From Fastidiosibacter lacustris (lineage in GTDB: Bacteria; Pseudomonadota; Gammaproteobacteria; Francisellales; Francisellaceae), in NCBI RefSeq assembly GCF_003428155.1, contig NZ_QLIR01000001.1:60001-92000 (forward strand): DNA of 32,000 bases, written 5' to 3'. A model generated the notes under the pieces. It was not told the DNA's origin and made no database searches. It saw only the letters and a list, made by a program, of their open reading frames with translations. Of this stretch, positions 8,519-28,187 are shown piece after piece (the stretch's first letter is position 1; each line of letters begins with the position of its first letter). The position numbers were made by a program, and so were the translations under genes.

Positions 8519-8549
8519 CAACGTGCGTAATTCCTATAAGGCTCGTAAG

Positions 8550-9800: not shown

Positions 9801-9816
9801 ATTTAAGGAATATTTG

Positions 9817-10821: not shown

Positions 10822-11399
10822 GTGATTTTTTCGTTCACGAAAGCAGTTATATTGATGAAGGTGTTAGTATTGGGGAAAATACCAAAATTTGGCATTTTTG
10901 CCATATCATGCGTAATACCAATATTGGTAACGATTGCTCATTTGGGCAAAATTGTGTTGTTGGTCCCAATGTGAAAATTGGTAACAATGTTAAAGTACAG
11001 AACAATATTTCTATCTACGATGGTGTAGAATGCGAAGACGATGTTTTTCTTGGACCTTCAATGGTATTTACAAATGTCATTAATCCAAGAAGCCATGTCA
11101 ATCGTAAGCATGAATTTAAAAAAACCTTGATAAAGAAGGGTTCGACAGTAGGTGCTAATGCCACAATTGTTTGTGGTGTAACGATTGGTGAATATGCTTT
11201 GATTGGAGCGGGCTCGGTAGTAACAAAAGATGTTAAACCGTTTGCATTGATGGTGGGAATTCCTGCTAGGCAAATTGGTTGGGTTGATATGCTTGGAGAG
11301 AGAATTAATTTTGGCAAGAGCAACCAGGCACTTGATGGACAAGGTAATGCTTATATTTTGCAAAATGAATTTGTTAGCTTGCTCAGAGGAATTCGGTGA
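10818..11399 (+). CDS. wbpD: Hexapeptide-repeat (LbH) N-acetyltransferase, WbpD-like
   Basis: 193 aa made of left-handed beta-helix hexapeptide repeats ([69 protein letters not shown]). The GTG start overlaps the wbpB stop (GTGA). Confidence 0.8.
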
Positions 11400-13372: not shown

Positions 13373-13390
13373 ATAAATTAAGAGAGTTAT

Positions 13391-14449
13391 ATGAAACCAT
13401 TTTTTGATATTCAAGCACAGTATCAAATGTACAAAGAAGAAATTAACCAAGCAATTCAAGAAGTGTTGGATTCAGGTAATTTTATTATGGGGCTACAAGT
13501 TAAAATGCTTGAGAGTGAGTTAGAAAGCTATACGGGTGCTAAGCATTGTGTGACATGCGCCAATGGCACTGATGCGCTACAAATTGCAATGATGGCAATA
13601 GGCATAAAACCAGGTGATGAAGTGATCACAACGCCATTTACTTTTATTGCAACAGCAGAAACAATAGCGCTTTTGGGCGCTAAGCCTGTATTTGTGGATA
13701 TTGAAGAAAGTAGCTTTTTAATTGATGCTGATTTAATTGCAGAAAAAATCACCCCCAGAACTAAAGCAATTATCCCTGTGTCATTATATGGGCAGGTTGC
13801 TGATATGGATGCAATTAACAAAATGGCTAAAGAGCATTCACATAAATTGGGGCATAAAATTTATGTCATTGAAGATGCTGCTCAAAGCTTTGGTGCAGAG
13901 TATAAAGGTAACAAATCTTGTAATGTATCAGACATCGCTACAACAAGTTTTTTTCCAACAAAACCATTAGGTTGTTATGGCGATGGTGGTGCAATATTTA
14001 CATCGAATGATGAAATAGCGCAAAAGATGCGCGAAATTCGAGTTCATGGTCAAAGTAAACGTTATTATCATACGAGTGTGGGGGTGAACTCACGTTTAGA
14101 TACCATTCAAGCAGCAGTCTTATTGGTGAAGCTAAGATATTTCGATCAAGAAATTGAAATACGCCGCAAGCGAGCACAAGAATACTTTAAGCAATATCAA
14201 GGTACAGAAATAGTAACACCAATTGAATTGCAGGGTAGAAAGCATGTTTATGGTCAGTATACGGTGCGAGTAAAAGATAGAGAGAGTTTTCAAGAGCGAT
14301 TGAAATTGCAAGGTATTCCAACCACCATTCATTATCCGGTACCATTAAATAAGCAGCCAGCATTTGAGGATAAGTATGCCTTTTGTCCTGTGTCAGATAG
14401 ACTATCTGATGAAGTGTTAAGTTTACCGATGTGTTTGTACAGTGAATAG
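13391..14449 (+). CDS. wbpE: DegT/DnrJ/EryC1-family PLP aminotransferase, WbpE-like (3-oxo-UDP-GlcNAcA transaminase)
   Basis: 352 aa with the family motifs CANGTDAL, EDAAQSFG and the PLP-lysine context SFFPTKPLGCYGDGG. It shows synteny with wbpA/B/D. Confidence 0.85.
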   Translation: MKPFFDIQAQYQMYKEEINQAIQEVLDSGNFIMGLQVKMLESELESYTGAKHCVTCANGTDALQIAMMAIGIKPGDEVITTPFTFIATAETIALLGAKPVFVDIEESSFLIDADLIAEKITPRTKAIIPVSLYGQVADMDAINKMAKEHSHKLGHKIYVIEDAAQSFGAEYKGNKSCNVSDIATTSFFPTKPLGCYGDGGAIFTSNDEIAQKMREIRVHGQSKRYYHTSVGVNSRLDTIQAAVLLVKLRYFDQEIEIRRKRAQEYFKQYQGTEIVTPIELQGRKHVYGQYTVRVKDRESFQERLKLQGIPTTIHYPVPLNKQPAFEDKYAFCPVSDRLSDEVLSLPMCLYSE

Positions 14450-14454
14450 AACTA

Positions 14455-15702
14455 ATGTTTAAAAAAATCTCTATTGTTTTCTTTGGGTATGCGTTAGCTC
14501 AGGGAATTCTCTTTGCATCCTCTCCATTGTTATCAAGATTGTATGACCAGTCGGCTTTTGGCTTGTTAGGCTTTGTTATGGCTTTTGCTGGTGTAATGCT
14601 ACCAATTTTAAGCTTACGTTATGAATACGCAATGCCTTTGGTAAAAACGGCTCACAGTAAACTATCTCTTTTAAAAATCTGCCAAAAGCTAGTTGCTGTA
14701 ATAAGTGTTGTTGCAATCTTTGGATACCTATTGCTAAATTTACTTTTTAATTTCCATGAAATGTCTGTGATTCAATTACTCATCATGGGGGTGATTCTAT
14801 TTACTCAAGGTAATGTTCAAGCAAGCAATCTATATTTAATTTCATATGGGCTTACTACAAAGATGACGGTTGGCAAAATCTATCAAAATATTGTGTTAGT
14901 CGTGGCTCAATTTTTGTTAGCGCTTTTGATCATGGGAATAGGGACAGGTTTAATCTTGGCTTTGCTAATAGGACAGTTAGTTAATCTTGTGTATTTACGT
15001 TATGTTTCAAAGGTTTTGACTACTTCTTGCCATGTGCCAAAAAAATCTCATGCGTTGCTTTTACTGTCTAAGTTTAAGCGATTACCATTATTGATGAGTT
15101 GGGGAGATTTGTTAAACTCGCTAACGTCAAATTTGCCAGTCTTCTTTTTCACCAGTTATTTTGGAGCAAAAACCGTTGGCTTATACTTTTTTGCTTATAG
15201 TGTTTTTAGTGCTCCTTTAAGCCTTTTAGGATTAGCCATATCTCAGGTGATGCTAAAAGATTTTGCAGATAGAGTGATTTATAAGAAAAAAATACTAAAG
15301 CGCTTCTTGATGACGAGTTTTCTTTTAGTGCTGTGTGCTCTTTTGTATTATCTTGTTGCTATTATTTTAGCTCAATATGCTTTATTAATATTTGGTGCTC
15401 ATTGGCAGGGCTTGAAAGAAGTGATTGAGTTAATTTCGCTACCAATTGCATGTATGCTAGTTGCGTCACCACTTTCAACGCTACTAAACACCTTAAATAA
15501 AAATAGATACTTGACAATGTGGCAATCTCTATTTTTTATCGGTACTTTATTGGCATTATATTTGTGTAAGCATTTCGATTTTTTTGAGTTACTAGGTTCT
15601 GTTACATATCTCTGGACATTTATGTATATTCTATATTGGGTAGTTATATTTATTTTTGTTGTTCTATATGAAAAAAGGTTAAGTGGTCGTGTCTCAGTCT
15701 AG
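14455..15702 (+). CDS. wzx: O-unit flippase Wzx (MOP/polysaccharide-biosynthesis family)
   Basis: 415 aa, ~12 predicted TM helices, very AT-rich, located inside a glycan locus next to a Wzy-like gene. The family call rests on topology and context rather than strong motifs. Confidence 0.7.
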   Translation: MFKKISIVFFGYALAQGILFASSPLLSRLYDQSAFGLLGFVMAFAGVMLPILSLRYEYAMPLVKTAHSKLSLLKICQKLVAVISVVAIFGYLLLNLLFNFHEMSVIQLLIMGVILFTQGNVQASNLYLISYGLTTKMTVGKIYQNIVLVVAQFLLALLIMGIGTGLILALLIGQLVNLVYLRYVSKVLTTSCHVPKKSHALLLLSKFKRLPLLMSWGDLLNSLTSNLPVFFFTSYFGAKTVGLYFFAYSVFSAPLSLLGLAISQVMLKDFADRVIYKKKILKRFLMTSFLLVLCALLYYLVAIILAQYALLIFGAHWQGLKEVIELISLPIACMLVASPLSTLLNTLNKNRYLTMWQSLFFIGTLLALYLCKHFDFFELLGSVTYLWTFMYILYWVVIFIFVVLYEKRLSGRVSV

Positions 15703-16876
15703 TGATTTATCCTTTTCATCAAACTGTTTAGTAGCTAAGGAAAGACTATCAAACTTTTATCTTTGGATGATTAGTGCAGGGTTCTTTCTCTATAACTACC
15801 TTATTGGAAATAACTATCTACCTGCAGGTCATGTTGGTCTTTATAGTTTTTCATCATTATTCTATTTGTGCTGCATGGGGTATCTATACCGGTATGATCT
15901 GGGGAAAATACGGTTTGATTTATTATTATTTTGGGTCACAATATTTATTTTTTCAGTCTTTTTACTGACGATTGTTTATTATCTGTTTGATCTTCCTTCC
16001 TCAAACTATAGTTTGAGTTTGTTTACTGCAAATCTAAAATTTATTATCCAATATACTTCGTTGCTGTTTGCAGCTTATTTTGTAAAAGTAGGAAGAATGA
16101 GAAAAGTTATTTTATATTCTTTTGTTTTACTCTCTTGCTTAATATTTTCTAACATAGATTACAATTACTTGATTTTTACGTATGGATACTCAGCTGATAG
16201 TAACTTAATTGCAAGTTACCAAGGTATGGCTAGTAGCTATTTGATGCTATTGATTTTGTTGTTAGTTGCAACTAGGCGAAAGGATGTAAAACTGCTATTT
16301 GCATTTGTGGGCATGGTAGCTCTTTTTTTTATTGGCGCTAGAACTCAGTTTGTTATGGGAGCAATGATTTTTACTTTAATGTTGTTTAAATATCATCCTA
16401 AATTTACTTTTATTCTCATGTTTATAGGAGGCATTTCATTATGTTTTTATCCTGAGATCTTGCTCATGCATGATAGTAGAATTTTTAATTTGTTCCATTT
16501 AGCTCATGACACATCGTTTAAAGCAAGAATCCAAATGTTTGATGCAGGTATCCAAGATATTATAAATCACCCTATTTTGGGAGTATATGGTGGGCAAGTT
16601 TATTATTTTGATGATTTGGGTAGCTATATCCATAATGCTCTTAGTGTTTGGAGGCAGTTTGGAGTTTTTGTTTTCTTAGTATATGTATATGTCATTATGA
16701 GATCCTTTAGTGCTTTGTTTATTTATGCAAGGAAAAGCTCCTCAGTAGAAATAGTATTATTTTATGCAATTGCAATAATTGTGGGTTTGACTTTCTCTCA
16801 AAATTATGAAAATGCAACAGTAGCTTTTATTGTGGGAGCCGCTTTAAGATGTTTAAGTATTAAAGAGAAAACGTAG
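15683..16876 (+). CDS. wzy: O-antigen polymerase Wzy (O-antigen-ligase-like Wzy_C family membrane protein)
   Basis: ~10-12 TM helices plus one large loop (HDSRIFNLFHLAHDTSFKARIQMFDAGIQDIINHPILGVYGG), as in Wzy_C/WaaL-type proteins. It is adjacent to wzx. The start is uncertain: GTG 15683 overlaps wzx by 20 nt, and the ATG at 15767 is an alternative. Confidence 0.6.
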   Translation: MVVSQSSDLSFSSNCLVAKERLSNFYLWMISAGFFLYNYLIGNNYLPAGHVGLYSFSSLFYLCCMGYLYRYDLGKIRFDLLLFWVTIFIFSVFLLTIVYYLFDLPSSNYSLSLFTANLKFIIQYTSLLFAAYFVKVGRMRKVILYSFVLLSCLIFSNIDYNYLIFTYGYSADSNLIASYQGMASSYLMLLILLLVATRRKDVKLLFAFVGMVALFFIGARTQFVMGAMIFTLMLFKYHPKFTFILMFIGGISLCFYPEILLMHDSRIFNLFHLAHDTSFKARIQMFDAGIQDIINHPILGVYGGQVYYFDDLGSYIHNALSVWRQFGVFVFLVYVYVIMRSFSALFIYARKSSSVEIVLFYAIAIIVGLTFSQNYENATVAFIVGAALRCLSIKEKT

Positions 16877-16885
16877 GAGTATTTA

Positions 16886-17527
16886 GTGATTGCAATTATT
16901 GATTATGGTATGGGGAACCCCGCTTCTATATTGAATATGATTCGAAAGGTCGGTGGAGAGGCAATCTTATCATCCAGTGTTCAGGATATTAATGCTGCAA
17001 CAGCAATCATACTCCCAGGGGTAGGCTCTTTTGATAATGGTGTAATAAGGCTAAGGCAATTAGGTATCTTAGAGACTTTAAAGAAGAAAATATTGCAAGA
17101 TAAAATTCCATTTTTAGGTGTTTGTTTAGGTATGCAACTATTGTTTGAAACAAGCGAGGAAGGTGAGGAAATGGGGCTAGGGTATATTTCGGGAAGTGTC
17201 ACAAGATTTAATTTTTTTGAACGGCGAGAGCAACAAAAAAAATTGCGTGTGCCGCATATGGGATGGAATGAAATATCAGCGAAAGATGACTTGCTATTTA
17301 GAGGGTTAACGGAAAACGCTAGATTCTACTTTGTGCATTCATATTATGTTAATTGTTTAGATGAAGCTAATGCTCTAGCCTGTTGTCATTATGGGCATCC
17401 ATTTACCTGTGCTGTACGTAAGGATAATATTTATGGGGTTCAGTTTCATCCTGAAAAGAGTCACAAATTTGGTATGCAACTATTTAGGAATTTTTTGGAG
17501 ATTGTGAAATGCTCAGAACACGCGTAA
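16886..17527 (+). CDS. hisH: HisH-like class-I glutamine amidotransferase subunit (LPS-locus paralog, HisH2/WbuY type)
   Basis: MIAIIDYGMGN start, catalytic Cys in GVCLGMQLL, and His/Glu in FHPEKS. An AGGAG RBS precedes the GTG start. The context is glycan biosynthesis, not a his operon. Confidence 0.85.
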   Translation: MIAIIDYGMGNPASILNMIRKVGGEAILSSSVQDINAATAIILPGVGSFDNGVIRLRQLGILETLKKKILQDKIPFLGVCLGMQLLFETSEEGEEMGLGYISGSVTRFNFFERREQQKKLRVPHMGWNEISAKDDLLFRGLTENARFYFVHSYYVNCLDEANALACCHYGHPFTCAVRKDNIYGVQFHPEKSHKFGMQLFRNFLEIVKCSEHA

Positions 17528-18273
17528 TCCCTACATTATTGTTAAAAGAAGTGGGATTATATAAAGGCATACAGTTTAAAAACCACCAATATGTCGGAGA
17601 TCCAATTAATGCGGTGAAAATTTTTAATGAGAAAGAAGTTGATGAGCTTGTTTTTTTAGATATCTCAGCAACTGATAATAAGCGTATTAATTATGAATTG
17701 ATTGCTGATATTTCTGCTGAGACGTTTATGCCTTTTGCTTATGGTGGAGGAATTTCCCAAGTACAACAGATAGAGAAGCTTTTCCATCTGGGTGTTGAAA
17801 AGGTTATTATAAATACTGCTGCATTCTATTACCCAGAATTAATCACTCAGGCAAGCAAACTTGCTGGTAGTCAGAGTATTGTTGTGTCAATAGATGTTAA
17901 AAAGAGTCTTATGGGTAGGTATGAAGTATACGTTAACAATGGAAAAACTAGAACAAAGCAAGCCCCTATAGAATATGCTAAAAAAATTCAAGATCTAGGC
18001 GCTGGGGAAGTCATCGTGACTTCTATTAATCGTGAAGGTACTGGTAGTGGTTATGATCTTGAGCTACTTTCTCAAATATCTTCGGCAGTTGAAATTCCTA
18101 TTGTTGCTTCAGGAGGTGCGAACTCTATTGATGATTTTGCTCAAGCTGTATCAAAGGCTCATGTGTCAGCCGTTTCAGCGGGTAGTATGTTCGTTTTCCA
18201 TGGCAAGCATCGTGCTGTTTTGATAACATACCCCAGTTATGAAAAACTAGAACAAGCTTTGCAGGAGAACTAA
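17509..18273 (+). CDS. hisF: HisF-like cyclase/ammonia-channel subunit (LPS-locus paralog, HisF2/WbuZ type)
   Basis: 254-aa (beta/alpha)8-type sequence with RVIPTLLLKEVGLYKG, DELVFLDI, GGGIS and ASGGA motifs. It overlaps hisH by 19 nt. Confidence 0.85.
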   Translation: MLRTRVIPTLLLKEVGLYKGIQFKNHQYVGDPINAVKIFNEKEVDELVFLDISATDNKRINYELIADISAETFMPFAYGGGISQVQQIEKLFHLGVEKVIINTAAFYYPELITQASKLAGSQSIVVSIDVKKSLMGRYEVYVNNGKTRTKQAPIEYAKKIQDLGAGEVIVTSINREGTGSGYDLELLSQISSAVEIPIVASGGANSIDDFAQAVSKAHVSAVSAGSMFVFHGKHRAVLITYPSYEKLEQALQEN

Positions 18274-18275
18274 AG

Positions 18276-19418
18276 TTGGCTGAAGCTTATCAAATGTGTA
18301 TCCAATGTGTCATGGATACAAGTGACCCCCATATCATTTTTGATGAAAATGGTGTTTGTAATCATTGTCATGAGTTTGAAGAAATCACTTCAAAGCGTTG
18401 GTTTCCTAATGAAGTAGGTCAAAAGCTTTTGGAATCTATCATAGAGCAAATAAAAAAAGATGGTCAAGGTAAAGAGTATGATTGTATTATTGGGTTAAGT
18501 GGTGGAGTCGATAGTTCATATTTGGCTTTAAAGATTAAAGATTACGGTTTGAGACCTTTAGTTATTCATGTTGATGCTGGGTGGAATAGTGAATTAGCAG
18601 TGTGGAATATCGAGCAAATTGTGAAATATTGTGGCTATGAGTTACATACTAGAGTAATAGATTGGCAGGAAATAAAAGATTTACAGGTTGCTTATTTAAA
18701 GTCAGGAGTTGCAAATCAAGATGTTGTGCAAGATCACGCATTCTTTGCCTCTCTTTATCATTACACAACAAAGAATAAAATTAAGTATGTGATTAGTGGT
18801 GGTAATATTGCAACTGAGTCAGTTTTTCCCGAAAGTTGGCACCATTCAGCCATGGATGCAATAAATTTAAGAGCCATACACAAAAAATTTGGTCAATGCA
18901 AATTAAAAGATTATGAAACGATTTCATTTTTTCAGTATTACTTTTATTACCCATTTGTTAAAAAGATGAAAACGATTAGACCGCTGAATTATATGAACTA
19001 TGATAAAGTGCATGCATTGCAAGAGCTTAAAGCGGTTGTTGGCTACAAAGAGTATGGTAGAAAACATGGAGAATCTAGATTTACCAAATTTTTTCAAAAC
19101 CATTACTTACCAACTAAGTTTAATATAGATAAACGTAGAGCACATTTATCAAGCGAAATTCTTTCTGGGTTGATTACGCGTGACCAAGCACTTATTGAGT
19201 TAGAAAAACCGCTATATGATGCAATCGAATTAAAGGAGGATTTTGCTTATATTGCGAAAAAACTTGGCATATCTATTGAAAACCTGATGGAAGTAACGCA
19301 ATCAACTGGTCATAGCTATCAGGAATATAAAAATTGGGATCATTTGCAAAAGTTGGCTAAGCATATTCAACGAGTGGTTGAAAAAATCACCAATAAAAAT
19401 GTTAAGATTTACAGTTAA
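18276..19418 (+). CDS. wbpG: N-acetyl-sugar amidotransferase (WbpG/WbuX/PseA family, PP-loop ATP pyrophosphatase)
   Basis: It has an N-terminal zinc ribbon CIQC-X17-CNHC and the PP-loop GLSGGVDSS, and sits immediately downstream of hisH/hisF as in the P. aeruginosa O5 wbp cluster. The TTG at 18276 has an AGGAG upstream; the ATG at 18294 is an alternative start. Confidence 0.85.
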   Translation: MAEAYQMCIQCVMDTSDPHIIFDENGVCNHCHEFEEITSKRWFPNEVGQKLLESIIEQIKKDGQGKEYDCIIGLSGGVDSSYLALKIKDYGLRPLVIHVDAGWNSELAVWNIEQIVKYCGYELHTRVIDWQEIKDLQVAYLKSGVANQDVVQDHAFFASLYHYTTKNKIKYVISGGNIATESVFPESWHHSAMDAINLRAIHKKFGQCKLKDYETISFFQYYFYYPFVKKMKTIRPLNYMNYDKVHALQELKAVVGYKEYGRKHGESRFTKFFQNHYLPTKFNIDKRRAHLSSEILSGLITRDQALIELEKPLYDAIELKEDFAYIAKKLGISIENLMEVTQSTGHSYQEYKNWDHLQKLAKHIQRVVEKITNKNVKIYS

Positions 19419-19441: not shown

Positions 19442-20542
19442 GTGATTAAAGTTGCACATTTAACGTCTGTCCACTCTCGATATGATGTCAGAGTTTTTTT
19501 AAAAGAGTGTGTATCTCTTGCAAAAAAATATAACGTTTCTTTGGTAGTTGCAGACAGCAAAGGTGATGAAGTAAAAAATGCTGTCAACATTTATGATGTG
19601 GGTAAACTTCACGGGCGTGTTAATCGTATTTTTAAAACAACGAAAAAAGTATTGAAAAAAGCCTTGGAGTTGGATGCTGATATCTATCACTTGCATGACC
19701 CTGAGTTATTGCTTATTGCAAAAAAACTGAAAAAAGCGGGTAAAAAGGTGATTTTTGATGCGCATGAAGATCTTCCTGCACAGCTATTGTCAAAGCCATA
19801 TCTAACGGTTTGGAAAGCGCGGTTGCTTTCATATATGGCAGCTAAGTATGAGAAAATGGTATGTTCAAAGACTGATGGAGTAGTAGCTGCAACTCCATTT
19901 ATTAGAGATAAGTTCCTAAAAATAAATAAAAAAACAGTAGATATTAATAATTATCCTATTTTGGATGAAGTTGGACAGTTGATTAATTGGAATTTAAAAG
20001 ATGGTAGTTTTTGTTATGTTGGAGGGGTATCTAAAGTAAGAGGGATAGTAGAAATTATTCAAGCGGTAAATTTATCACGGTTATCTAAAGCTTATATTGT
20101 AGGTGGTTTTGAAAGCCCAAAATTTGAACAGGAAGTTAGGAAGGGATTGTCGAAGAAAATCGAACTTATTGGGTGGCTTTGCAGAGAAGGAGTCAGGGAA
20201 GTTTATGAAAAAAGTATCGCAGGTTTTGTTACTTTGCATCCAATAATTAATTACGTAGATGCATTACCAGTCAAAATGTTTGAATATATGTCAGCTGGAA
20301 TTCCGGTTATTGCCTCTAATTTTGCTTTATGGAGAGAGATTATTGAGGGTAATAATTGTGGGATTTGTGTTGACCCGATGAAACCAGAAGAAATTGTCCA
20401 AGCAATCAATTTCTTAATTGCAAATTTAGATAAAGCAGAAGAAATGGGTAATAATGGCAGAATAGCTATCGAAGAAAAATATAATTGGGGAAATGAGTCA
20501 GAAAAATTGTTAAAGTTTTATAAGAGTATTGAGTTAGGATAA
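19442..20542 (+). CDS. GT4-family (GT-B) glycosyltransferase
   Basis: 366 aa. It has an N-terminal KVAHLTSVH region and the C-terminal EX7E-type motif region PVKMFEYMSAGIPVIAS. The GTG start is preceded by GGAG. Confidence 0.8.
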   Translation: MIKVAHLTSVHSRYDVRVFLKECVSLAKKYNVSLVVADSKGDEVKNAVNIYDVGKLHGRVNRIFKTTKKVLKKALELDADIYHLHDPELLLIAKKLKKAGKKVIFDAHEDLPAQLLSKPYLTVWKARLLSYMAAKYEKMVCSKTDGVVAATPFIRDKFLKINKKTVDINNYPILDEVGQLINWNLKDGSFCYVGGVSKVRGIVEIIQAVNLSRLSKAYIVGGFESPKFEQEVRKGLSKKIELIGWLCREGVREVYEKSIAGFVTLHPIINYVDALPVKMFEYMSAGIPVIASNFALWREIIEGNNCGICVDPMKPEEIVQAINFLIANLDKAEEMGNNGRIAIEEKYNWGNESEKLLKFYKSIELG

Positions 20543-20665: not shown

Positions 20666-22489
20666 ATGTGCGGAATTTTTGGTGTTATTTCAACATCAGT
20701 TGTAAATAAGAGTGATTTTGAGAAATTAGCTAAGCATGCTGAACAACGCGGTATGGACTCTAGTGGGATAATTTGTTATGAGTATGGTCATTATAAGATT
20801 AAGCGAGCTGACTATGCTGTTGAAAAGTTGATTCGTAAAGTGAAGCTCAATGGTGCATCCTTGGCTATGGGTCATAGCCGACTCATTACAAATGGTCTAT
20901 CTGACAACCAGCCAGTTGTGCGTGGAAATATTATGGCAATCCACAATGGGATTATTGTTAACGATGAAGAGGTTTGGCATGAGCTTTCAATTGCTAGAAG
21001 CCTCAAGATAGATTCAGAGGTTCTCGTAGCAATTGCTGAAGAACATCTTTTAAATGGAGGTGCAGTCGAAGCTATTCCGGGAAAAATATTGAGTCTTTGT
21101 AAAGGAGTTATTGCATGTGCACTTGTGTTGGTAGAACATGGTAAGCTTATTTTATTTTCCAATAATGGCAGTTTATACATTGGGGAAAAAGGCAAAGATA
21201 TTTATTTTTCTTCAGAAAGCTTTCCCTTGAGAGAGACTGGCTGTAATAATATCAAACAGGTAAAATCTGCTGTTTGTATTGATATCCCAAAATCTCATGA
21301 GTCTCCCAAAATTCTCGATGAGAATATTCGCCAACATAATGTAATTCCCACACTTATTACAAATGTTGAAGAGGAAGCACTTTTACAGTATGAGACTCCT
21401 GAATTAAAAAGATGTAGTAAGTGTATTTTGCCTGAAACGATGCCATTTATTCATTTTGACTCAGAGGGTGTATGTAATTATTGTCATGATTATAAAATAC
21501 GGAATAAACCACGTCCAAAAGAAGAACTGTTTAAGATTGTAGAGCCTTATCGCCGTGCGCATGGAAATGATTGTATTGTTCCTTTTTCAGGAGGAAGAGA
21601 TAGTTGTTATGGTCTTCACTTAATTGTAAATGAGCTTAAAATGAAACCAGTTACTTACACCTATGACTGGGGGATGGTGACTGATCTAGGAAGGCGAAAC
21701 ATCAGTAGAATGTGTGCAGAACTTGGTGTTGAAAATATTATTGTTGCTGCTGATATTGATAAGAAACGTAAGAATATTGCTATGAATTTAAAGGCATGGT
21801 TAAAGTCTCCTCATCTTGGGATGATTAGTATATTAACAGCGGGAGATAAACATTTTTTTAAATATGTTGAGTCAGTTAAACAGCAGACTGGGATCAATTT
21901 AAATTTATGGGGGGTGAATCCTTTAGAGGTTACACACTTTAAATCGGGTTTTCTTGGCGTTAAGCCTGATTTTGAGGAAAAGCGAGTTTATTCGCATGGT
22001 ATGATAAAACAGTTGCGTTATCAGTCTTTACGTTTACGAGCCATGCTCAAAAGTCCAGGGTATTTTAATAGCTCACTATGGGATACACTTTTGGGGGAGT
22101 ATTACAGAAGTTTCACCGAGAAAAAAGATTATTTTCATATATTTGATTATTGGCGTTGGGATGAAAAAATCATTGATGAAACCTTAATGTCCTGTTACGA
22201 CTGGGAAAAAGCAGTAGATACAAATACAACCTGGCGTATTGGCGATGGAACAGCGGCTTTTTATAATTATGTTTACTATACGGTTGCGGGATTTACAGAG
22301 CATGACACTTTTAGAAGTAATCAAATCCGCGAAGGTGAAATTTCACGAGAGCGTGCATTGCAGTTAGTTAAAGATGAGAATAGACCTCGTTATTCAAATA
22401 TTCGTTGGTATCTTGATGTTTTAGGTATGGACTTTAAAGAAGTTATAAAAGTGGTGAATTCAATACAAAAATTATATAAGGTAAAATAA
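20666..22489 (+). CDS. Fusion protein: class-II (Ntn) glutamine amidotransferase domain + WbpG/WbuX-type N-acetyl-sugar amidotransferase domain
   Basis: Residues 1-~200 carry MCGIFG (nucleophile Cys2), GHSRLITNG, IHNGIIVND and DSEVL, which are GATase-II motifs. From residue 250 there is CSKC-X16-CNYC plus the PP-loop PFSGGRDSC, colinear with the ORF at 18276..19418. Confidence 0.8.
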   Translation: MCGIFGVISTSVVNKSDFEKLAKHAEQRGMDSSGIICYEYGHYKIKRADYAVEKLIRKVKLNGASLAMGHSRLITNGLSDNQPVVRGNIMAIHNGIIVNDEEVWHELSIARSLKIDSEVLVAIAEEHLLNGGAVEAIPGKILSLCKGVIACALVLVEHGKLILFSNNGSLYIGEKGKDIYFSSESFPLRETGCNNIKQVKSAVCIDIPKSHESPKILDENIRQHNVIPTLITNVEEEALLQYETPELKRCSKCILPETMPFIHFDSEGVCNYCHDYKIRNKPRPKEELFKIVEPYRRAHGNDCIVPFSGGRDSCYGLHLIVNELKMKPVTYTYDWGMVTDLGRRNISRMCAELGVENIIVAADIDKKRKNIAMNLKAWLKSPHLGMISILTAGDKHFFKYVESVKQQTGINLNLWGVNPLEVTHFKSGFLGVKPDFEEKRVYSHGMIKQLRYQSLRLRAMLKSPGYFNSSLWDTLLGEYYRSFTEKKDYFHIFDYWRWDEKIIDETLMSCYDWEKAVDTNTTWRIGDGTAAFYNYVYYTVAGFTEHDTFRSNQIREGEISRERALQLVKDENRPRYSNIRWYLDVLGMDFKEVIKVVNSIQKLYKVK

Positions 22490-22490
22490 A

Positions 22491-23726
22491 GTGAACGTTT
22501 GGTACATCTCTAAATACGCAACTATTCCTAAGTATGGCAGGTTAGCGCGAACTTTTCTGTTGTCAAAAGAGTTTGCTGAAAAAGGAAATAAAGTGTTTTT
22601 AATTACCTCAGATGCTAATCATTTAGCGCAATATCCAGAAACTGAAAAAGTTTATAATTTTGAGCATATACAAGGTATTGATGTTTGTTGGATAAAAACC
22701 AAAAAATATAAAAAAACAGCCTCACTTTCCCGCATACTGAGCTGGCTGGACTTTGAAATAAAATTGTTTAGATTAAAAAAAAATAACCTAGATAGCCCTA
22801 ATATTGTACTTGTCTCATCTTTATCTATATTCACGGTGATCTATGGTTTTTATTTGAAAAAAAAGTATAAAGTTCCATTAGTTTTTGAAGTGCGGGATAT
22901 ATGGCCATTAACGATGACAGAAGAGGGCGGTTTCTCTAAGTGGCACCCGCTTGTTAAGATAATTGGCTGGATTGAGAAATTTGGCTATAAGCATGCTGAT
23001 CTTATTGTGGGGACAATGCCTAAACTGGATAAGCATGTTGAAGAAGTTTTAGGGTATAAACGCCCTTATTTTTGTTCCCCGTTAGGATTTGATAAAAAAA
23101 GTTATGATTATGATAGATTGAATGATTATGAAAATATGTATTTTGCACAGCTCCCCAAAAAGAAAACAATTATTGGCTATGCGGGGAGCATGGGAGTAAC
23201 AAATAATTTAGAGCCTTTGATTAAAACAATAAAGCTTTTGAAAAATAATGGGGATATGTTTTTTGCGCTTGTAGGTTATGGGGATTTGAAAGAGCAGTTT
23301 GAAAAAGAGCTTAAAGGTTGTGATAATGTTATCTTTGTTGGTAGACTGCCTCAGGAACAAGTTAAATTTTTTCTAGCTAAATGTGATTTGGTATATCTGT
23401 CAACGATACCATCTAAAATTTGGTCATATGGTCAGTCGATGAACAAGGTGGTTGAGTATATGCTTGCAGCTAAGCCAATCTTGGCCTCATACTCGGGTTA
23501 CCAATCGATGATAAATGAAGCAAACTGCGGATATTTTATTAAAACAGATGATCCTGAAAGGTTGAAGCAAGAAATTTTAAAATTTTGCGAGCTAACTGAG
23601 GGAGAAAAGTCCAAAATGGGTGAGAGGGGGAGAAAGTGGATTCTGGAGCATCGGTCTTATGATAAGCTTGCAAGTGAGTATCTAGAGCAACTTGAAAGGT
23701 TAGTTCAAAAAAAGAAATTAGGATAG
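22491..23726 (+). CDS. GT4-family glycosyltransferase (WbuB-like)
   Basis: 411 aa. It has the N-terminal [10 protein letters not shown], the [10 protein letters not shown] motif characteristic of WbuB-type GT4 enzymes, and the C-terminal region [16 protein letters not shown]. The GTG start is 1 nt after the preceding stop. Confidence 0.75.
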
Positions 23727-23812: not shown

Positions 23813-24436
23813 ATGAGGTCAATTAGAGAAGTGAAGGTCTTGTCAGATAAAATATTTGCAGTTGTCATTCTAGCTATTTTTTTTCCAATTATCTTGATAG
23901 TGGGTGTCTTAATTAAAGTCAAGTTAGGATCACCGATTTTTTTCAAACAAAAGCGCCCAGGAAAAGATGGCAAAATATTCACAATTTATAAATTTCGCAC
24001 AATGAATAATAACACTGATAAATATGGTGAATTACTTGCAGATGAACAAAGGCTAACTAAGTTTGGTAAGTTTTTAAGAAGTACAAGTTTAGATGAATTG
24101 CCACAGTTATTTAATGTACTCAAGGGGGATATGAGTTTTGTGGGACCTCGAGCTTTATTAGTTGAATATTTGCCTTTATATAGTAATAGACAAGCTAAAA
24201 GGCATATAGTAAAGCCTGGGATTACCGGTTGGGCGCAAGTAAATGGGCGTAATGCAATTAGTTGGGAGGATAAATTTGAGTTGGATGTCTGGTATGTCGA
24301 GAACAGAACTTTTTGGCTTGATATGAAAATATTGTGGATGACTTTTATCAAGGTCATAAGGCGTACTGACGTAAATAATGAATCTCATGTAACAATGTAT
24401 AAATTTTCAGGTTCAAAAAATCATGGGCAAGACTAA
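23813..24436 (+). CDS. Small monotopic phosphoglycosyl transferase (PglC/WbaP-C-terminal 'bacterial sugar transferase' family), the initiating enzyme
   Basis: 207 aa with a single N-terminal re-entrant helix ([21 protein letters not shown]). It has the KQKRPG...FTIYKFRTM motif, the catalytic DE dyad in [23 protein letters not shown], and [13 protein letters not shown]. Confidence 0.88.
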
Positions 24437-25055
24437 GAAAAAATTGTTAATAGTGGGTGCTGGCGGGCATGCCAAGGTTGTTGCAGATGCTGTCATAGCC
24501 CAAGGTGTATACTCCATTGAAGCCGTGATTCAAGATGTGAACATTCCAGCTGAGGGAAAAACGTTATTAGGATACAAGGTTTCCCATTCCTCGGAGCTAA
24601 AGGTCTTCCAGGCAGAATATTTCATTGTTGCAATTGGGGAGAATTTTATTAGAGCGGAGCAGTTTGTCAAATATAAGAAGCAAGACTATCTCCCCGCGAA
24701 TATTATTCATCCAAGTGCAATCATCTCTCCATCGGCTAAGATGGGCGAGGGGAATGTAATTATGGCTGGAGCCATCATCAACCCAGAGGCTAAAATTGGC
24801 TCGAACGTCATTATCAATACAAGAGTCGTTATAGAGCATGAAGTGGTCATTTCTGATCATTCACAACTATCGCCAGGATCAATTGTATGTGGAGGATGTA
24901 GTATAGGTAAAAAGGTTTATCTAGGTGCCAATTCAGTTATTCGTCAATGTCTTAGAATAGCAGATAATTCAATTATAGGTTGTGGAGCAAGTGTCATTAA
25001 CAATATTACAGAGTCTGGAGTATATGTTGGTGTTCCAGCTAAAATAAAGGTGTAG
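24423..25055 (+). CDS. PglD/NeuD-family sugar N-acetyltransferase (hexapeptide)
   Basis: It has an N-terminal Rossmann-like [13 protein letters not shown], a C-terminal LbH region ([31 protein letters not shown]) and a GVPAK tail. It overlaps the upstream gene by 14 nt. Confidence 0.8.
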
Positions 25056-25133
25056 AGGATTTAAAACCCTTGTTGTATACTCACTTCTCTTATAGAGAAA
25101 GCACGTCATTTGAAGTTTATAGAGGATAATTAA

Positions 25134-26303
25134 ATGGCAATAAACAACACATGGCCATATTTTGCAGAAGATGAAATTTTAGCAGTTGAACAGGTTTTAA
25201 AACGTGGTAGGGTAAATTACTGGACTGGAGATGAATGTAAACTATTTGAGAAAGAGTTTGCTGCATTTATTGGTACTGATTATGCCATTTCGTTGTCGAA
25301 TGGAACCGTAAGTTTAGAATTAGCACTACGAGCTTGTAATATTAGTGAAGGTGATGAGGTAATTACAACACCGAGAACATTTATTGCTTCAGCAAGCGCT
25401 ATTGTTGCCGTTGGTGCAACTCCTGTTTTAGCGGATGTTGACCCTTACACTGGGAACATCACAGCAGAGAATATTTTAACCAAAATAACCAAGAAGACAC
25501 GAGCGATTATTCCTGTCCACCTTGCTGGCTACCCATGTGAAATGGATAAAATTATGCAGCTTGCGACCGAATATAAGCTTTATGTTGTTGAGGATTGTGC
25601 GCAAGCGCATGGTGCTGAGTATAAAGGCAAAAAGGTTGGAGCCTGGGGACACTTCGGTTCTTTCTCCTTCTGTCAGGATAAAATTATGACCACTGGAGGG
25701 GAGGGTGGTATGTTAGTGTGTTATGATCCTGAGTTATATAAAAAGGCTTGGAGTTATAAAGATCATGGCAAAGGTTATGACGCTGTTTTTCATACCAAGC
25801 ATGAGTATGGTTTTAGGTGGCTACATGATTCCTTTGGGACGAATATGCGGATGACAGAAATGCAGGCAACCATAGGGCGTAAGCAGTTAGAGAAATTACC
25901 AACCTGGCTTAAGCGGCGAAACAAAATTGCACGATGCTATAGTGAGGTGTTTAAAGATTTGCCAATTGTTGATGTTCCAACAGTTGAGGCAGGTGTATAT
26001 CACGCGTTTTATAAATATTATCTCCTATTAAATGAAACGCATGTAAGATCAGATTGGAGTAGAGATCGCATCATAATTGAAATCAATAAACTGGGTGTTG
26101 CCTGCTTTAGTGGCAGCTGTTCTGAAATTTATAAGGAAAAAGCTTTTCTTACAAGTGAGTATGCAGTCAGTGAACCCTTATATGAGACGAAACGAATAGG
26201 GAATCGAAGCCTTATGTTATTATGTCATCCAACATTATCTAATGATGATATTAATCATATTGCTAGCACAGTTGCTCAAGTGTTAAAGATGGCAAGTATC
26301 TAG
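25134..26303 (+). CDS. DegT-family PLP aminotransferase, PglE-like (4-keto-6-deoxy-HexNAc transaminase)
   Basis: It has the motifs SNGTVSLELAL and EDCAQAHGA and the PLP-lysine context FSFCQDKIMTTGGEGGM. It is flanked by PglD-like and PglF-like genes. Confidence 0.8.
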   Translation: MAINNTWPYFAEDEILAVEQVLKRGRVNYWTGDECKLFEKEFAAFIGTDYAISLSNGTVSLELALRACNISEGDEVITTPRTFIASASAIVAVGATPVLADVDPYTGNITAENILTKITKKTRAIIPVHLAGYPCEMDKIMQLATEYKLYVVEDCAQAHGAEYKGKKVGAWGHFGSFSFCQDKIMTTGGEGGMLVCYDPELYKKAWSYKDHGKGYDAVFHTKHEYGFRWLHDSFGTNMRMTEMQATIGRKQLEKLPTWLKRRNKIARCYSEVFKDLPIVDVPTVEAGVYHAFYKYYLLLNETHVRSDWSRDRIIIEINKLGVACFSGSCSEIYKEKAFLTSEYAVSEPLYETKRIGNRSLMLLCHPTLSNDDINHIASTVAQVLKMASI

Positions 26304-26360
26304 TTATTTAGGATGCACAACTTGGTGCTGACTTGATATGGTTTTAGAGAATAATAAGTT

Positions 26361-28187
26361 ATGAAAACAAGCCTAATAAAAAACAAAAGTGCGTGGATTG
26401 TATTTGCCTATGATGTAGGCTCTGCCTTATTTGCGTGGACTATTGTGCATGCGCTTATTTGGGGAAAAGTAAGTGGCTTTAGCGTAAGGCAATTTTTGTT
26501 CGTTGCCATTGCTTTTACTATATCAACAAAAATCTTTCGCACTTATGCCTCATTGTGGAAAACAGTATCTGCAGAGGATTTGAAAAGAAATATTTATTCA
26601 GTACTTTTTGGCTCAATCATTCTTTTGGGGCTGGAGTTTATTGCCAATAGAATGGCTTATGTGGCGCGTTCTGAGGCTGTTTTCTACCCTGCTTTGACAT
26701 TGCTCATTACACTTGCTGGACGATTTTTTTATAGGCAATACTTGCTGGGCTTAAGAAAAAGAAATGCAAAAAAAATGATTATCATTGGGGGTGGTGATGG
26801 TGCAAGCTTATTTTTACGTGAAAACGATGCACTCAACAGACCATATAATATTTTAGGGATATTTGATGATAACAAGGCATTGCATGGCAAGTTGCTTCGA
26901 AATAATATGATTGTCGGTCCAATTGATTTTCTAGCTAAGGAAAATTTTTTGTATAAGTATCCAGCCGATGAAGTTTTAATTGCTATTCCTTCACTGGATA
27001 AAATTAAACTGCAAGAGATATACCAGAAAGTAGCAAAGCTTGGTTTGCCCATCAAAATACTACCTTCCTTAATGGAGTTAACGCATGGTGCAAAATTTAC
27101 GGATCTTAAAGAAATTAAGATTGAGGATCTTTTGGGGCGTGATCAAGTTATTATTAATTATGAAAAATTAGCAAAAGCCTATTTAGAAAAAACAGTATTA
27201 GTAACGGGAGGTGCAGGATCTATTGGTTCAGAAATCTGTCGGCAGCTGTTAACAAACTCTCCTCCAAAAGTATTGATTATTTTAGATCATAGCGAATACA
27301 ATCTCTATTTGATTGAGAGGGAGCTAAGCTTAATTTCCCGCCAGACAAAGCTTAAATTTAGTTTAACTAGTGTTATGGATCAGTGCGGTCTATCTCACCT
27401 ATTTCAATCAAATAAAATTGATATTATTTTTCATGCAGCAGCCTATAAGCATGTACCATTATTGGAAGATCAACCGAAAATAGCGATTCAAAACAATATC
27501 ATCGGAACAAAAAATATGGTTGATTTGAGTCTTAAGCACAAAGTGGAACGGTTTCTTCTAGTTTCAACGGATAAGGCAGTTAATCCTACTAATGTCATGG
27601 GAGCGACAAAACGAATTGCTGAGTTATATGTCAATGCACAAAAAAATGAGCATACTAAGTTTATGGTGACACGTTTTGGCAATGTTTTAGGCTCTGCTGG
27701 AAGCGTTGTCCCTCTCTTTAAAGAGCAGCTGAAAAAAGGGGGACCGATTACCGTGACGCACAAGGATATTGAACGTTATTTTATGACCATTCCTGAAGCT
27801 TCTTTATTGGTTGTTTTGTCTTGTGCTATTGGAACAGGGGGTGAAACCTTCGTGTTGGAAATGGGGCAGCCTGTGAAAATAGTTGAACTTGCTGAGCAAA
27901 TGATCAAGCTATCGGGCAAAAAACCATATGTGGACATTGATATCCAATTTACAGGTTTGCGACCTGGTGAAAAAATGTATGAAGAACTATTCTACACAAA
28001 AGAGGAATTGAAAAGCTCAGGTTTTGATAAATTATTAATTGGTCGATCTATTCATTTAGAGCGTGAAAAAATAAATGGGATCCTGAAAACGCTTTGTACA
28101 GATGAAAGTAAGGAAGGGTTACTGAAAGTTATTGAGTCTTTGAATAGTTGTGATTTGCTTACAACGCAGACGCTATATGAATCATAA
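26361..28187 (+). CDS. Membrane-anchored UDP-GlcNAc 4,6-dehydratase (WbpM/PglF/CapD family)
   Basis: 608 aa. It has ~4 N-terminal TM helices, a first nucleotide-binding-like IIIGGGDGA, the SDR domain VTGGAGSIGSE, the FHAAAYKHVP catalytic region and VSTDKAVNPTNVMGATKR. Confidence 0.88.
   Translation: MKTSLIKNKSAWIVFAYDVGSALFAWTIVHALIWGKVSGFSVRQFLFVAIAFTISTKIFRTYASLWKTVSAEDLKRNIYSVLFGSIILLGLEFIANRMAYVARSEAVFYPALTLLITLAGRFFYRQYLLGLRKRNAKKMIIIGGGDGASLFLRENDALNRPYNILGIFDDNKALHGKLLRNNMIVGPIDFLAKENFLYKYPADEVLIAIPSLDKIKLQEIYQKVAKLGLPIKILPSLMELTHGAKFTDLKEIKIEDLLGRDQVIINYEKLAKAYLEKTVLVTGGAGSIGSEICRQLLTNSPPKVLIILDHSEYNLYLIERELSLISRQTKLKFSLTSVMDQCGLSHLFQSNKIDIIFHAAAYKHVPLLEDQPKIAIQNNIIGTKNMVDLSLKHKVERFLLVSTDKAVNPTNVMGATKRIAELYVNAQKNEHTKFMVTRFGNVLGSAGSVVPLFKEQLKKGGPITVTHKDIERYFMTIPEASLLVVLSCAIGTGGETFVLEMGQPVKIVELAEQMIKLSGKKPYVDIDIQFTGLRPGEKMYEELFYTKEELKSSGFDKLLIGRSIHLEREKINGILKTLCTDESKEGLLKVIESLNSCDLLTTQTLYES

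Follow-up and report, generated by a model that had tools for sequence, protein, structure and literature searches.

Several three-protein systems are known for the formation of acetamidino groups on sugars: WbpG/HisH2/HisF2 in Pseudomonas aeruginosa O5, WbuX/WbuY/WbuZ in Escherichia coli O145, AglX/AglY/AglZ in Methanococcus maripaludis, and PseA with Cj1315c/Cj1314c. In these systems the synthase is served in trans by a class-I HisH glutaminase and a HisF2 barrel. P. aeruginosa O5 contains ManNAc3NAcA and ManNAc3NAmA, which are made with wbpG (PMC8319346). The synthase family (NASAT) is described as having a zinc ribbon, an SGGxDS PP-loop and a downstream helical region, with the tetracysteine zinc-site motif CxxC-Xn-[GN]xCxxC; the Legionella pneumophila enzyme LpNASAT (8WEX) combines this zinc site with a Rossmann-like PP-loop core (PMC10607449). 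A different group of enzymes in O-antigen loci, the AsnB-type sugar amidotransferases such as WbpS and WbtH, uses glutamine and joins an N-terminal Ntn glutaminase to a C-terminal PP-loop ATP pyrophosphatase. AsnB-type amidotransferases are the usual candidates for uronamide formation. To our knowledge, the enzymology of sugar amidines is almost unknown, with a single crystal structure and no reaction reconstituted so far.

In this study, a stretch of 32,000 nucleotides from Fastidiosibacter lacustris (the window) was analyzed, in which a complete triad lies approximately 1.2 kb upstream of a fused amidotransferase gene, here termed FUS. The relevant features are as follows.

16886..17527, + strand, HisH-type class-I glutaminase of the triad (TIGR01855, 234 bits)
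17509..18273, + strand, AglZ/HisF2 acetamidino-modification protein of the triad (NF038364, 358.7 bits, above cut-off)
18276..19418, + strand, stand-alone WbuX/NASAT amidotransferase of the triad (TIGR03573, 301 bits, above cut-off)
20666..22489, + strand, FUS, Ntn glutaminase fused to a NASAT/WbuX-type PP-loop body (ORF of 607 aa, domain scans, AF2 model)
20666..21283, + strand, class-II (Ntn) glutamine amidotransferase domain of FUS, aa 1-206 (GATase_6/7, GlmS/PurF/AsnB N-terminal models, Foldseek)
21284..21406, + strand, interdomain linker of FUS, aa 207-247 (between the two profile matches)
21407..22480, + strand, NASAT (WbuX/WbpG-type) body of FUS, aa 248-605 (TIGR03573, hhalign, fold match 8WEX)

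The original prediction had described the 607-aa ORF as a class-II glutaminase joined to a WbuX/WbpG-type body, and the ORF and the domain scans agree with it. FUS starts with an ATG that has a GGAG Shine-Dalgarno sequence about 6 nt on its 5' side, and its translation contains all of the motifs that had been quoted. In the Pfam scan, GATase_6 and GATase_7 matched aa 64-186 above cut-off. The NCBIfam models of GlmS, PurF and AsnB matched through their N-terminal glutaminase parts only (aa 1-206); the GlmS models reached 60-66 bits against cut-offs of 381-418, and the match of the AsnB model TIGR01536 was confined to aa 2-243. Neither the C-terminal asparagine-synthase domain (Asn_synthase, PF00733) nor an SIS isomerase domain was found in FUS by the Pfam and NCBIfam scans. 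The remainder of the protein was instead covered by the WbuX model TIGR03573, which aligned to aa 248-593 over profile positions 2-339 of 344 (E 2.9e-40), and hhalign of the FUS body against 14 stand-alone WbuX proteins gave 99.9% over 332 columns (stand-alone positions 3-349) with an identity of about 22%. As judged from these profiles, the C-terminal part is a NASAT-type body that is homologous from end to end to the WbuX/WbpG/PseA-type enzymes and is not of the AsnB type. The score of 138.8 bits lies below the curated TIGR03573 cut-off of 203.2 bits, which makes the fused proteins a divergent sister group rather than members by the NCBI threshold; a distant fused relative reached 93 bits.

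The same picture was obtained from structure. The AF2 model of FUS (pLDDT 93.1, pTM 0.93) presents the two domains as one compact, confidently predicted unit, and within the linker aa 215-219 form strands, aa 234-237 form a helix and pLDDT dips at aa 221-230. Foldseek placed the N-terminal domain on the glutaminase domain of GlmS (1xff, TMt 0.70), whereas the best PDB fold match of the body was 8WEX (E 2e-15, target-normalized TM about 0.6, identity 18-20%), which was also matched by aa 261-348 in a sequence search of the PDB. Unlike FUS, LpNASAT stands alone and has no glutaminase domain. Superposition on AsnB (1CT9) was globally poor (TM about 0.3), and an AsnB-type C-terminal domain, which would have overturned the original assignment, was rejected on this ground together with the missing Asn_synthase match and the alignment to WbuX. 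FUS thus shares with AsnB-type enzymes the pairing of glutaminase and PP-loop domains, but its C-terminal domain belongs to another family with a zinc ribbon. Likewise, it shares with GlmS and PurF the N-terminal fold and catalytic residues, whereas their acceptor domains (SIS and PRTase) are unrelated to the FUS body.

All 25 catalytic and motif positions that were checked are invariant in 77/77 FUS copies. They include the Ntn set (Cys2, Arg28, Arg72, Thr75, His93-Asn94-Gly95 and Asp116), the zinc ribbon (Cys250/253/270/273, CSKC...GVCNYC) and the PP-loop (SGGRDS, aa 308-313, nt 21587-21604), the last of which was also invariant in a set of 55 sequences (55/55). The protein begins with MCGIFG, so that cysteine directly follows the initiator methionine, and its position as residue 2 fits the requirement for an Ntn nucleophile. 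On the evidence of these residues, the Ntn domain has a complete catalytic set for the hydrolysis of glutamine to ammonia, in which Cys2 would act as the nucleophile, Asn94-Gly95 would form the oxyanion hole, and Arg72 and Asp116 would bind glutamine. [quoted passage not shown] A dead glutaminase as the explanation for HisH-HisF beside FUS in two related loci (L046 and L049) was rejected, since neither Cys2 nor any of the other residues is altered.

The stand-alone WbpG-type paralog with hisH and hisF upstream, as originally proposed, is borne out by the scores listed above, and one locus does hold two amidotransferases with bodies of the same type. FUS and the stand-alone WbuX share only 32% identity over 116 aa in BLASTP, which led to the rejection of a recent duplication; the two PP-loop bodies of the window are, by sequence comparison, anciently diverged paralogs. 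FUS resembles the three-protein systems in its synthase body, including the whole downstream helical region, and in its occurrence in glycan loci with N-acetylated amino sugars. It differs from them in having a class-II glutaminase in cis, in the divergence of its body and in the usual lack of HisH/HisF from its loci.

The fusion is not an artefact of the window. A recorded F. lacustris protein of 607 aa is identical to FUS, and a protein search with FUS returned more than 7,800 matches, the best 120 of which are full-length fusions of 603-620 aa; an assembly error or two joined genes was therefore rejected. Relatives were found in 355 species-level genomes from many phyla, the best 80 aligning over nearly the whole protein, and full-length relatives are 67-74% identical. 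A survey of frequency and neighbors had been proposed at the outset, and its outcome is that the fusion is widespread and usually occurs without the triad. The NCBI name of the protein is 'glucosamine 6-phosphate synthetase', which is a mis-transfer from the N-terminal glutaminase domain, and a distant relative carries the name '7-cyano-7-deazaguanine synthase'. The original statement that the fused architecture has no known characterized example still holds, as none was found in the literature and database searches. Papers on the glycans of Psychrobacter, Bordetella avium, Vibrio anguillarum and Tannerella contained nothing on the fused enzyme, and no amidotransferase of any kind is mentioned in a Campylobacter concisus N-glycan preprint (2026). 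The enzyme of the Tannerella glycan cluster is AsnB-type according to the literature. Searches for literature on GlcNAc3NAcAN, and on a glutamine-dependent acetamidino amidotransferase in O-antigen, found none. The FUS family is real, widespread and mis-annotated, and is uncharacterized as far as the literature was searched.

The surroundings of FUS in the window are made up of two glycosyltransferase genes and two sugar blocks.

19442..20542, + strand, GT4 glycosyltransferase upstream of FUS, GTup (Pfam)
22491..23726, + strand, GT4 glycosyltransferase GTdn, conserved partner of FUS (Pfam GT4/GT1)
8523..14449, + strand, UDP-GlcNAc3NAcA pathway block (annotation; likeness to WbpA/D/E of the Escherichia albertii O1 cluster, EAOg1)
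8523-9800, + strand, WbpA/TviB-like dehydrogenase
9751-10821, + strand, WbpB-like oxidoreductase
10818-11399, + strand, WbpD-like acetyltransferase
11396-12997, + strand, AT3-SGNH O-acetyltransferase
13391-14449, + strand, WbpE-like aminotransferase
23813..28187, + strand, initiation block
23813-24436, + strand, small phosphoglycosyl transferase (PGT)
24423-25055, + strand, PglD-like acetyltransferase
25134-26303, + strand, PglE-like aminotransferase
26361-28187, + strand, PglF-like 4,6-dehydratase

The pathway block, whose WbpA/D/E-like proteins are 53-55% identical to their EAOg1 equivalents, probably supplies the substrate of FUS. No 2-epimerase gene was found in the window, which points to GlcNAc3NAcA as the substrate there. 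The initiation block is predicted from its gene content to make a first sugar of the diNAcBac/QuiNAc4NAc type.

The neighborhoods of FUS were counted in 80 related loci, using genes within 10 kb (n = 76 for some order counts), and the context was always glycan assembly. A GTdn homolog occurs in 64-66/80 loci and lies directly downstream of FUS in 43/76; in the window it starts 1 nt after the FUS stop codon, as seen in the junction sequence, and FUS is separated from the gene that follows it, of whatever kind, by a median of 9 nt. FUS and GTdn are usually followed by a diNAcBac-type initiation block in the gene order of the window, and this FUS-GT4-PGT-AcT-AmT-PglF cassette is conserved across phyla; FUS travels with its GT4 as a module. 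GTup homologs were found in 33 of the 80 loci and WbpB/D-like genes in 35. HisH is present in 14/80 loci and HisF likewise in 14/80; the complete triad was found in nine of the 80 by clustering, and a locus with a divergent WbuX (L001) makes ten. AsnB-type amidotransferases share the locus with FUS in 20/80 cases, sometimes as two copies, and accompany it in both plasmid contexts. The Chryseobacterium loci can supply a uronic acid. In a distant unit with the order dehydrogenase-GT2-FUS-GtrA, a UDP-HexNAc-type dehydrogenase is encoded two genes upstream of the FUS-like gene, and such a UDP-HexNAc-type dehydrogenase, as in locus L088, fits amide and amidine alike.

A compact context is a complete galF-gnd O-antigen cluster (L081), which contains only WbpA/B/D/E/I, Wzx, Wzy, two GT4 genes and FUS. 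It was identified as EAOg1 by exact in-silico PCR, in which the published wzx primers gave the expected 249-bp amplicon, and a protein identical to its FUS occurs in E. albertii. The two GT4 genes are orthologs of those in the window (GTup is 50% identical to GT4a), and the FUS proteins are 69% identical. HisH and HisF are absent from this complete cluster, FUS is its sole amidotransferase, and its sole dedicated sugar pathway leads to UDP-ManNAc3NAcA. It lacks bacillosamine genes and also a small PGT gene; from the absence of a PGT, initiation by the housekeeping WecA can be inferred. The title of the published description states that the O1 polysaccharide resembles P. aeruginosa O5 (Zheng et al., 2017).

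These observations favor, with a probability of approximately 0.55, the reading that FUS by itself, with glutamine as its nitrogen source, converts acetamido to acetamidino groups on a 2,3-diacetamido-hexuronic acid and so replaces WbpG, HisH2 and HisF2. Ammonia released at the Ntn site would reach the PP-loop site within the protein, which would make the HisH and HisF2 proteins of the three-protein systems dispensable. The reaction would be the usual one of the family, from acetamido to acetamidino, on 2,3-diacetamido-2,3-dideoxy-hexuronic acid, which would be modified as the UDP-sugar or directly after its transfer. GTdn, the GT4 translationally coupled to FUS, would install this residue, which may adjoin the diNAcBac-type first sugar in the repeat; this placement follows only from the position of the GT4 gene between those of FUS and PGT. 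In the window, the separate triad would provide another amidino group, on a different residue or position. A repeat unit with two nitrogen-containing, charge-altering decorations would result, and the original prediction of two such groups per repeat remains a reasonable expectation. Against this reading stand the coexistence of FUS and the triad in about ten loci, including the window, where two isofunctional systems would have to act on different residues, and loci such as L041 without a diacetamido-uronic pathway within 10 kb.

The main rival is carboxamide formation, in which FUS would adenylate a (di)acetamido-hexuronic acid at its C6 carboxylate to give GlcNAc3NAcAN or ManNAc3NAcAN, and the triad alone would make the amidine. 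This is rather unlikely in our estimation, although a change of chemistry is made possible by the low TIGR03573 score and identity of the FUS body. Every well-resolved context offers a uronic acid (the window, EAOg1, the Chryseobacterium loci and the distant dehydrogenase unit), and the recurring uronic-acid dehydrogenase neighbors fit carboxamide formation equally well. PP-loop enzymes such as AsnB and NadE adenylate carboxylates, the Ntn and PP-loop pairing of FUS is that of AsnB, and different chemistries would explain why FUS and the triad coexist. However, the FUS body is homologous from end to end to the acetamidino-forming family and not to AsnB, and genetic studies of PseA and AglX, and by inference WbpG and WbuX, tie this family to amidines. 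Furthermore, the AsnB-type genes that accompany FUS in 20 loci indicate that the two are not substitutes for each other and would make FUS redundant for amidation, which argues that it does something else. EAOg1 also has what we take to be the P. aeruginosa O5 gene set, with FUS in place of hisH2-hisF2-wbpG. Amidination of the 2- or 4-acetamido group of the bacillosamine-type first sugar (QuiNAc4NAc/diNAcBac), a target named in the original prediction, is now disfavored and seems very improbable. It would account for the conserved position of FUS beside PGT-PglD-PglE-PglF across phyla, including pgl loci with PglB, and for loci such as L041, in which no diacetamido-uronic pathway was found within 10 kb. 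Against it, the closely related FUS of EAOg1 functions in a cluster without bacillosamine genes, no diNAcBac block was detected in some 16-30 of the 80 loci, according to the gene scored, and the high identity among all FUS copies makes one substrate class likelier than several. The database identities as a GlmS-like glucosamine-6-phosphate synthase or a QueC-like 7-cyano-7-deazaguanine synthase have next to no probability: beyond the names themselves and the N-terminal domain, whose closest likeness is to the glutaminase domain of GlmS, they are refuted by domain content, as the C-terminal 360 aa are NASAT-type, and they are at odds with the glycan context.

If the acetamidino reading is correct, FUS apparently does alone what takes three proteins in the known systems. 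A wider proposal, offered tentatively, is that the NASAT body is fed by two unrelated glutaminase classes, one polypeptide replacing WbpG/HisH2/HisF2, and that in F. lacustris the triad and the fusion together place two amidine or amide groups on neighboring diacetamido-uronic acids, or else that the fused clade has turned the NASAT fold to the amidation of a carboxylate; the latter, if true, would be new chemistry for the family. Acetamidino and carboxamide groups turn anionic surface sugars neutral or zwitterionic, altering serotype and recognition by phages, tailocins and the immune system. A self-sufficient single-chain enzyme would be far easier to reconstitute than WbuX/HisH/HisF and could settle substrate activation and ammonia delivery in the family. 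The F. lacustris locus, with both solutions to ammonia delivery side by side, offers a natural comparison. Re-annotation could extend to thousands of entries in O-antigen, capsule and N-glycosylation loci that now bear the names 'glucosamine 6-phosphate synthetase', 'hypothetical protein' or 'QueC', among them that of O1, the commonest serotype of the emerging pathogen E. albertii. Finally, the presence of FUS in PglB-type loci of Campylobacterota would, if the assignment is true, add a previously unrecognized amidine or amide modification to bacterial N-glycans.

The fused amidotransferase (FUS) is encoded at 20666..22489 (+), with a GGAG ribosome-binding site approximately 6 nt 5' of its start, and comprises 607 amino acids beginning with MCGIFG. 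A Pfam scan placed GATase_6/GATase_7 at residues 64-186, and the NCBIfam models of GlmS, PurF and AsnB matched residues 1-206 with their N-terminal glutaminase parts only. Residues 248-593 were matched by TIGR03573 (WbuX, N-acetyl sugar amidotransferase, NASAT) over profile positions 2-339 of 344 (E = 2.9e-40); the score of 138.8 bits does not reach the curated cut-off, which is 203.2 bits. Asn_synthase and SIS domains were absent from the Pfam/NCBIfam domain scans. The original prediction, a class-II Ntn glutaminase joined to a WbuX/WbpG-type body, was therefore correct in all of its details, and an ordinary AsnB C-terminal domain is ruled out by the lack of an Asn_synthase match and the coverage of residues 248-593 by TIGR03573. 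None of the database names in the family reflects this architecture: its members (window 20666-22489; L082:10001-11965 and L083:12064-13815 in two further loci) are called 'glucosamine 6-phosphate synthetase', 'glutamine--fructose-6-phosphate transaminase', '7-cyano-7-deazaguanine synthase' or 'hypothetical protein'. The three enzyme names were wrongly carried over from one domain, and GlmS and QueC are wrong as identities of FUS.

The glycan locus around FUS contains the following genes:

8523..9800, WbpA/TviB-like UDP-GlcNAc 6-dehydrogenase
9751..10821, WbpB-like oxidoreductase
10818..11399, WbpD-like acetyltransferase
11396..12997, AT3-SGNH O-acetyltransferase, inserted between the WbpD- and WbpE-like genes
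13391..14449, WbpE-like aminotransferase
14455..15702, Wzx
15683..16876, Wzy-like membrane protein without a family match, assigned by hydrophobic sequence and position
16886..19418, HisH/HisF2/WbuX triad, made up of the next three genes
16886..17527, HisH, upstream of FUS
17509..18273, AglZ/HisF2 (358.7 bits, above the cut-off)
18276..19418, bona fide stand-alone WbuX (301 bits)
19442..20542, GT4, upstream of FUS
20666..22489 (+), FUS
22491..23726, GT4, beginning 1 nt past the FUS stop
23813..28187, small PGT, PglD-, PglE- and PglF-like genes

The hisH/hisF paralogs and the stand-alone WbuX that had been proposed upstream were all recovered with NCBIfam. As listed, the WbpB-like ORF (9751-10821) begins with TTG and shares 50 nt with the dehydrogenase gene before it; its actual start probably lies more downstream. 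Directly upstream of the locus (7136-8458) lies a 440-residue protein with Schlafen AlbA_2 and HATPase_c_4 domains, which is unrelated to sugar synthesis. The repeat is predicted to consist of a diNAcBac-type first sugar and two residues from the UDP-GlcNAc3NAcA pathway, which the two amidotransferases, FUS and the triad WbuX, would decorate. A 2-epimerase is present in the Escherichia albertii O1 O-antigen cluster (EAOg1) and in 16 of 80 related loci; no match to this family was found among the window ORFs scanned, and the uronic residues are therefore predicted, from gene content, to be gluco- rather than manno-configured.

Across 55 aligned fused proteins (35-85% identity), R28, T75, H93-N94-G95 and D116 of the glutaminase, C250 of the zinc ribbon and the PP-loop S308-G-G-R-D-S313 are invariant, and C2, R72, C253, C270 and C273 are at least 90% conserved; furthermore, all 25 positions checked are invariant in 77 copies from the window and related loci. 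This conservation indicates two intact active sites, each strongly constrained. AlphaFold2 gave a confident, compact model (mean pLDDT 93.1, pTM 0.93), in which the two domains form a single compact unit. Its best fold match in the PDB is the Legionella NASAT 8WEX, to the C-terminal body, while the N-terminal part is matched by the glutaminase domains of GlmS, PurF and AsnB; whole AsnB superposes poorly (TM ~0.3), and a PDB sequence search agreed. When the profile of the fused family was compared with that of 14 stand-alone WbuX proteins, FUS 245-605 aligned over 332 columns (99.9% probability, 22% identity), covering essentially the whole stand-alone enzyme, and BLASTP against the WbuX paralog in the window gave 32% identity over 116 residues only. 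The C-terminal body thus belongs to the NASAT lineage, and the low identities argue that the fused proteins are an old, divergent sister group; a recent duplication of the neighbouring WbuX is ruled out by the low identity between the two paralogs.

The fusion is widespread, as the survey called for by the original prediction established. Fastidiosibacter lacustris has a database entry for an identical 607-residue protein, and FUS has over 7,800 matches among database proteins, the best 120 of which, from Chryseobacterium, Aliarcobacter and others, are all 603-620 residues long and 69-100% identical over essentially their full length. With this identical record and full-length fused relatives, an assembly join of two genes is ruled out. 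When one genome per species was scanned, 355 genomes across many phyla proved to encode a relative; the best 80 (67-74% identity) are from Gamma-, Beta- and Alphaproteobacteria, Bacteroidota, Campylobacterota, Verrucomicrobiota, Leptonemataceae, Desulfobacterota, Bdellovibrio and Patescibacteria. Among the representatives of a library clustered at 50% identity, 478 matched at E<1e-30, and the best 150 were nearly all fused (600-690 residues, 37-69% identity). The family appears there as a tight clade, a gap and a broad 37-51% tail, the sole full-length representative above ~51% being one at 69%. Two length classes, ~605-660 and ~650-690 residues, occur (representatives P0128-P0266); the longer aligns in two pieces, with ~60 extra residues ahead of the zinc ribbon, and includes P0128.

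Neighbourhoods were surveyed by tblastn of window proteins against the 80 best loci and by de novo clustering of neighbouring ORFs. Of the 80 loci, 64-66 have the downstream GT4, which is the immediate neighbour of FUS in 43 of 76, the median gap to the next gene being 9 nt; PGT, PglD-, PglE- and PglF-like genes usually follow. Median identity to the window across loci is 69% for FUS versus 45% for this GT4; other travelling genes are also less conserved (PGT 57%, WbpE-like 46%), which marks FUS as unusually strongly constrained. WbpB/D-like genes lie within 10 kb of FUS in 35 of 80 loci, and L041 has sulfation, FemAB-like and DUF7033 genes in their place. The complete triad occurs in 9 of 80 loci, or 10 counting L001, where WbuX is divergent. 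In two Bacteroidota MAG loci (L046:3220-6589, L049:8457-11827), HisH and HisF2 genes stand directly upstream of a FUS with intact glutaminase residues, and no stand-alone WbuX was detected by HMM within these loci; the alternatives are a WbuX partner located elsewhere and an ability of HisH/HisF2 to serve the fused enzyme too. The oligosaccharyltransferase PglB (WWDYGY motif) comes after the module in Campylobacterota, which places FUS in N-linked protein glycosylation loci, and the N-glycan is predicted to carry an amidine or amide. In L003, L014, L034, L040 and L074 (Sulfurovum, Sulfurospirillum and relatives), FUS-GT4 precedes a PglB-type enzyme and PglC/D/E/F. The more distant P0128 retains the same GT4-FUS-GT4-PGT cassette, and P0232 lies in a unit of a UDP-HexNAc-type dehydrogenase, a polyprenyl-phosphate-sugar-synthase-like GT2, FUS and GtrA. 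In this compact unit (L088:7633-12380), the GT2 is ArnC/PpgS/AglJ-like and the FUS-like protein has 650 residues (39% identity); the gene content suggests modification of a lipid-phosphate-linked HexNAc-uronic acid for periplasmic glycan decoration.

A link to known chemistry is provided by L081, a galF-gnd cluster in E. coli (NZ_CP148493.1 1966788-1996574), FUS being carried by 2 of 5,426 complete E. coli genomes. Its listed genes are WbpB-, WbpA/TviB-, WbpD- and WbpE-like, Wzx, Wzy, GT4, a WecB/WbpI-type 2-epimerase, FUS and a second GT4, and nothing else; HisH/HisF/WbuX, AsnB and bacillosamine genes are all absent. This set resembles what we take to be that of Pseudomonas aeruginosa O5, with FUS in place of hisH2-hisF2-wbpG. 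FUS is 69% identical to that of the window, and the GT4 orthologs are 50% and 40% identical. The FUS sequence is labelled 'MULTISPECIES [Escherichia]', with the UniRef taxon E. albertii. The wzx primers published for EAOg1 genotyping (Ooka et al., 2019, Table S5; PMC6927306) have exact matches in L081 and yield in silico the 249-bp product that is expected, by which L081 is identified as the E. albertii O1 cluster. It represents an inter-species O-antigen transfer, not found in E. coli by the 2019 E. albertii survey; the cluster occurs in two Korean chicken E. coli strains and contains two frameshifted ISAs1 transposase genes. EAOg1 cross-reacts with an antiserum to E. coli O180, and among E. 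coli serogroups ManNAc3NAcA occurs in O180 alone (PMC7685785). In P. aeruginosa O5 (PAO1), which uses wbpG, both ManNAc3NAcA and ManNAc3NAmA are present (PMC8319346).

In the NASAT lineage, the PP-loop implies activation by ATP -> AMP + PPi (PMC10607449), and FUS is predicted to work like the WbpG/WbuX/PseA/AglX amidotransferases. Glutamine would be hydrolyzed at Cys2, the ammonia would move inside the protein to the PP-loop site and would there displace AMP from the adenylated oxygen of an acetamido group, which would become acetamidino; a 2,3-diacetamido-hexuronic acid, transferred by the coupled GT4, would be the substrate. We assign a probability of about 0.55 to amidine formation. The main rival, amidation of the C6 carboxylate to an amide, would suit a uronic acid that is always at hand and would let the window triad be the maker of the only amidine; however, the body of FUS is NASAT-type rather than AsnB-type, and AsnB-type amidotransferases often occur beside it, coexisting with FUS in 20 of 80 loci and in both annotated plasmid contexts. 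This reading is the less probable one. That FUS acts on bacillosamine, for which L081 carries no genes, is highly improbable.

FUS differs from the NASAT family in scoring below the curated cut-off and in usually lacking HisH/HisF2 partners, and resembles AsnB in logic only. As originally supposed, searches of the PDB and the literature returned no description of the fused form, and the single NASAT structure is of a stand-alone enzyme. The fused form is a widespread, mis-annotated and uncharacterized variant of the NASATs and does not amount to a new category of system. Its appeal lies in the neat exchange of one glutaminase module for another on a synthase that is poorly understood, and it would offer an easier route to the enzymology of that synthase.
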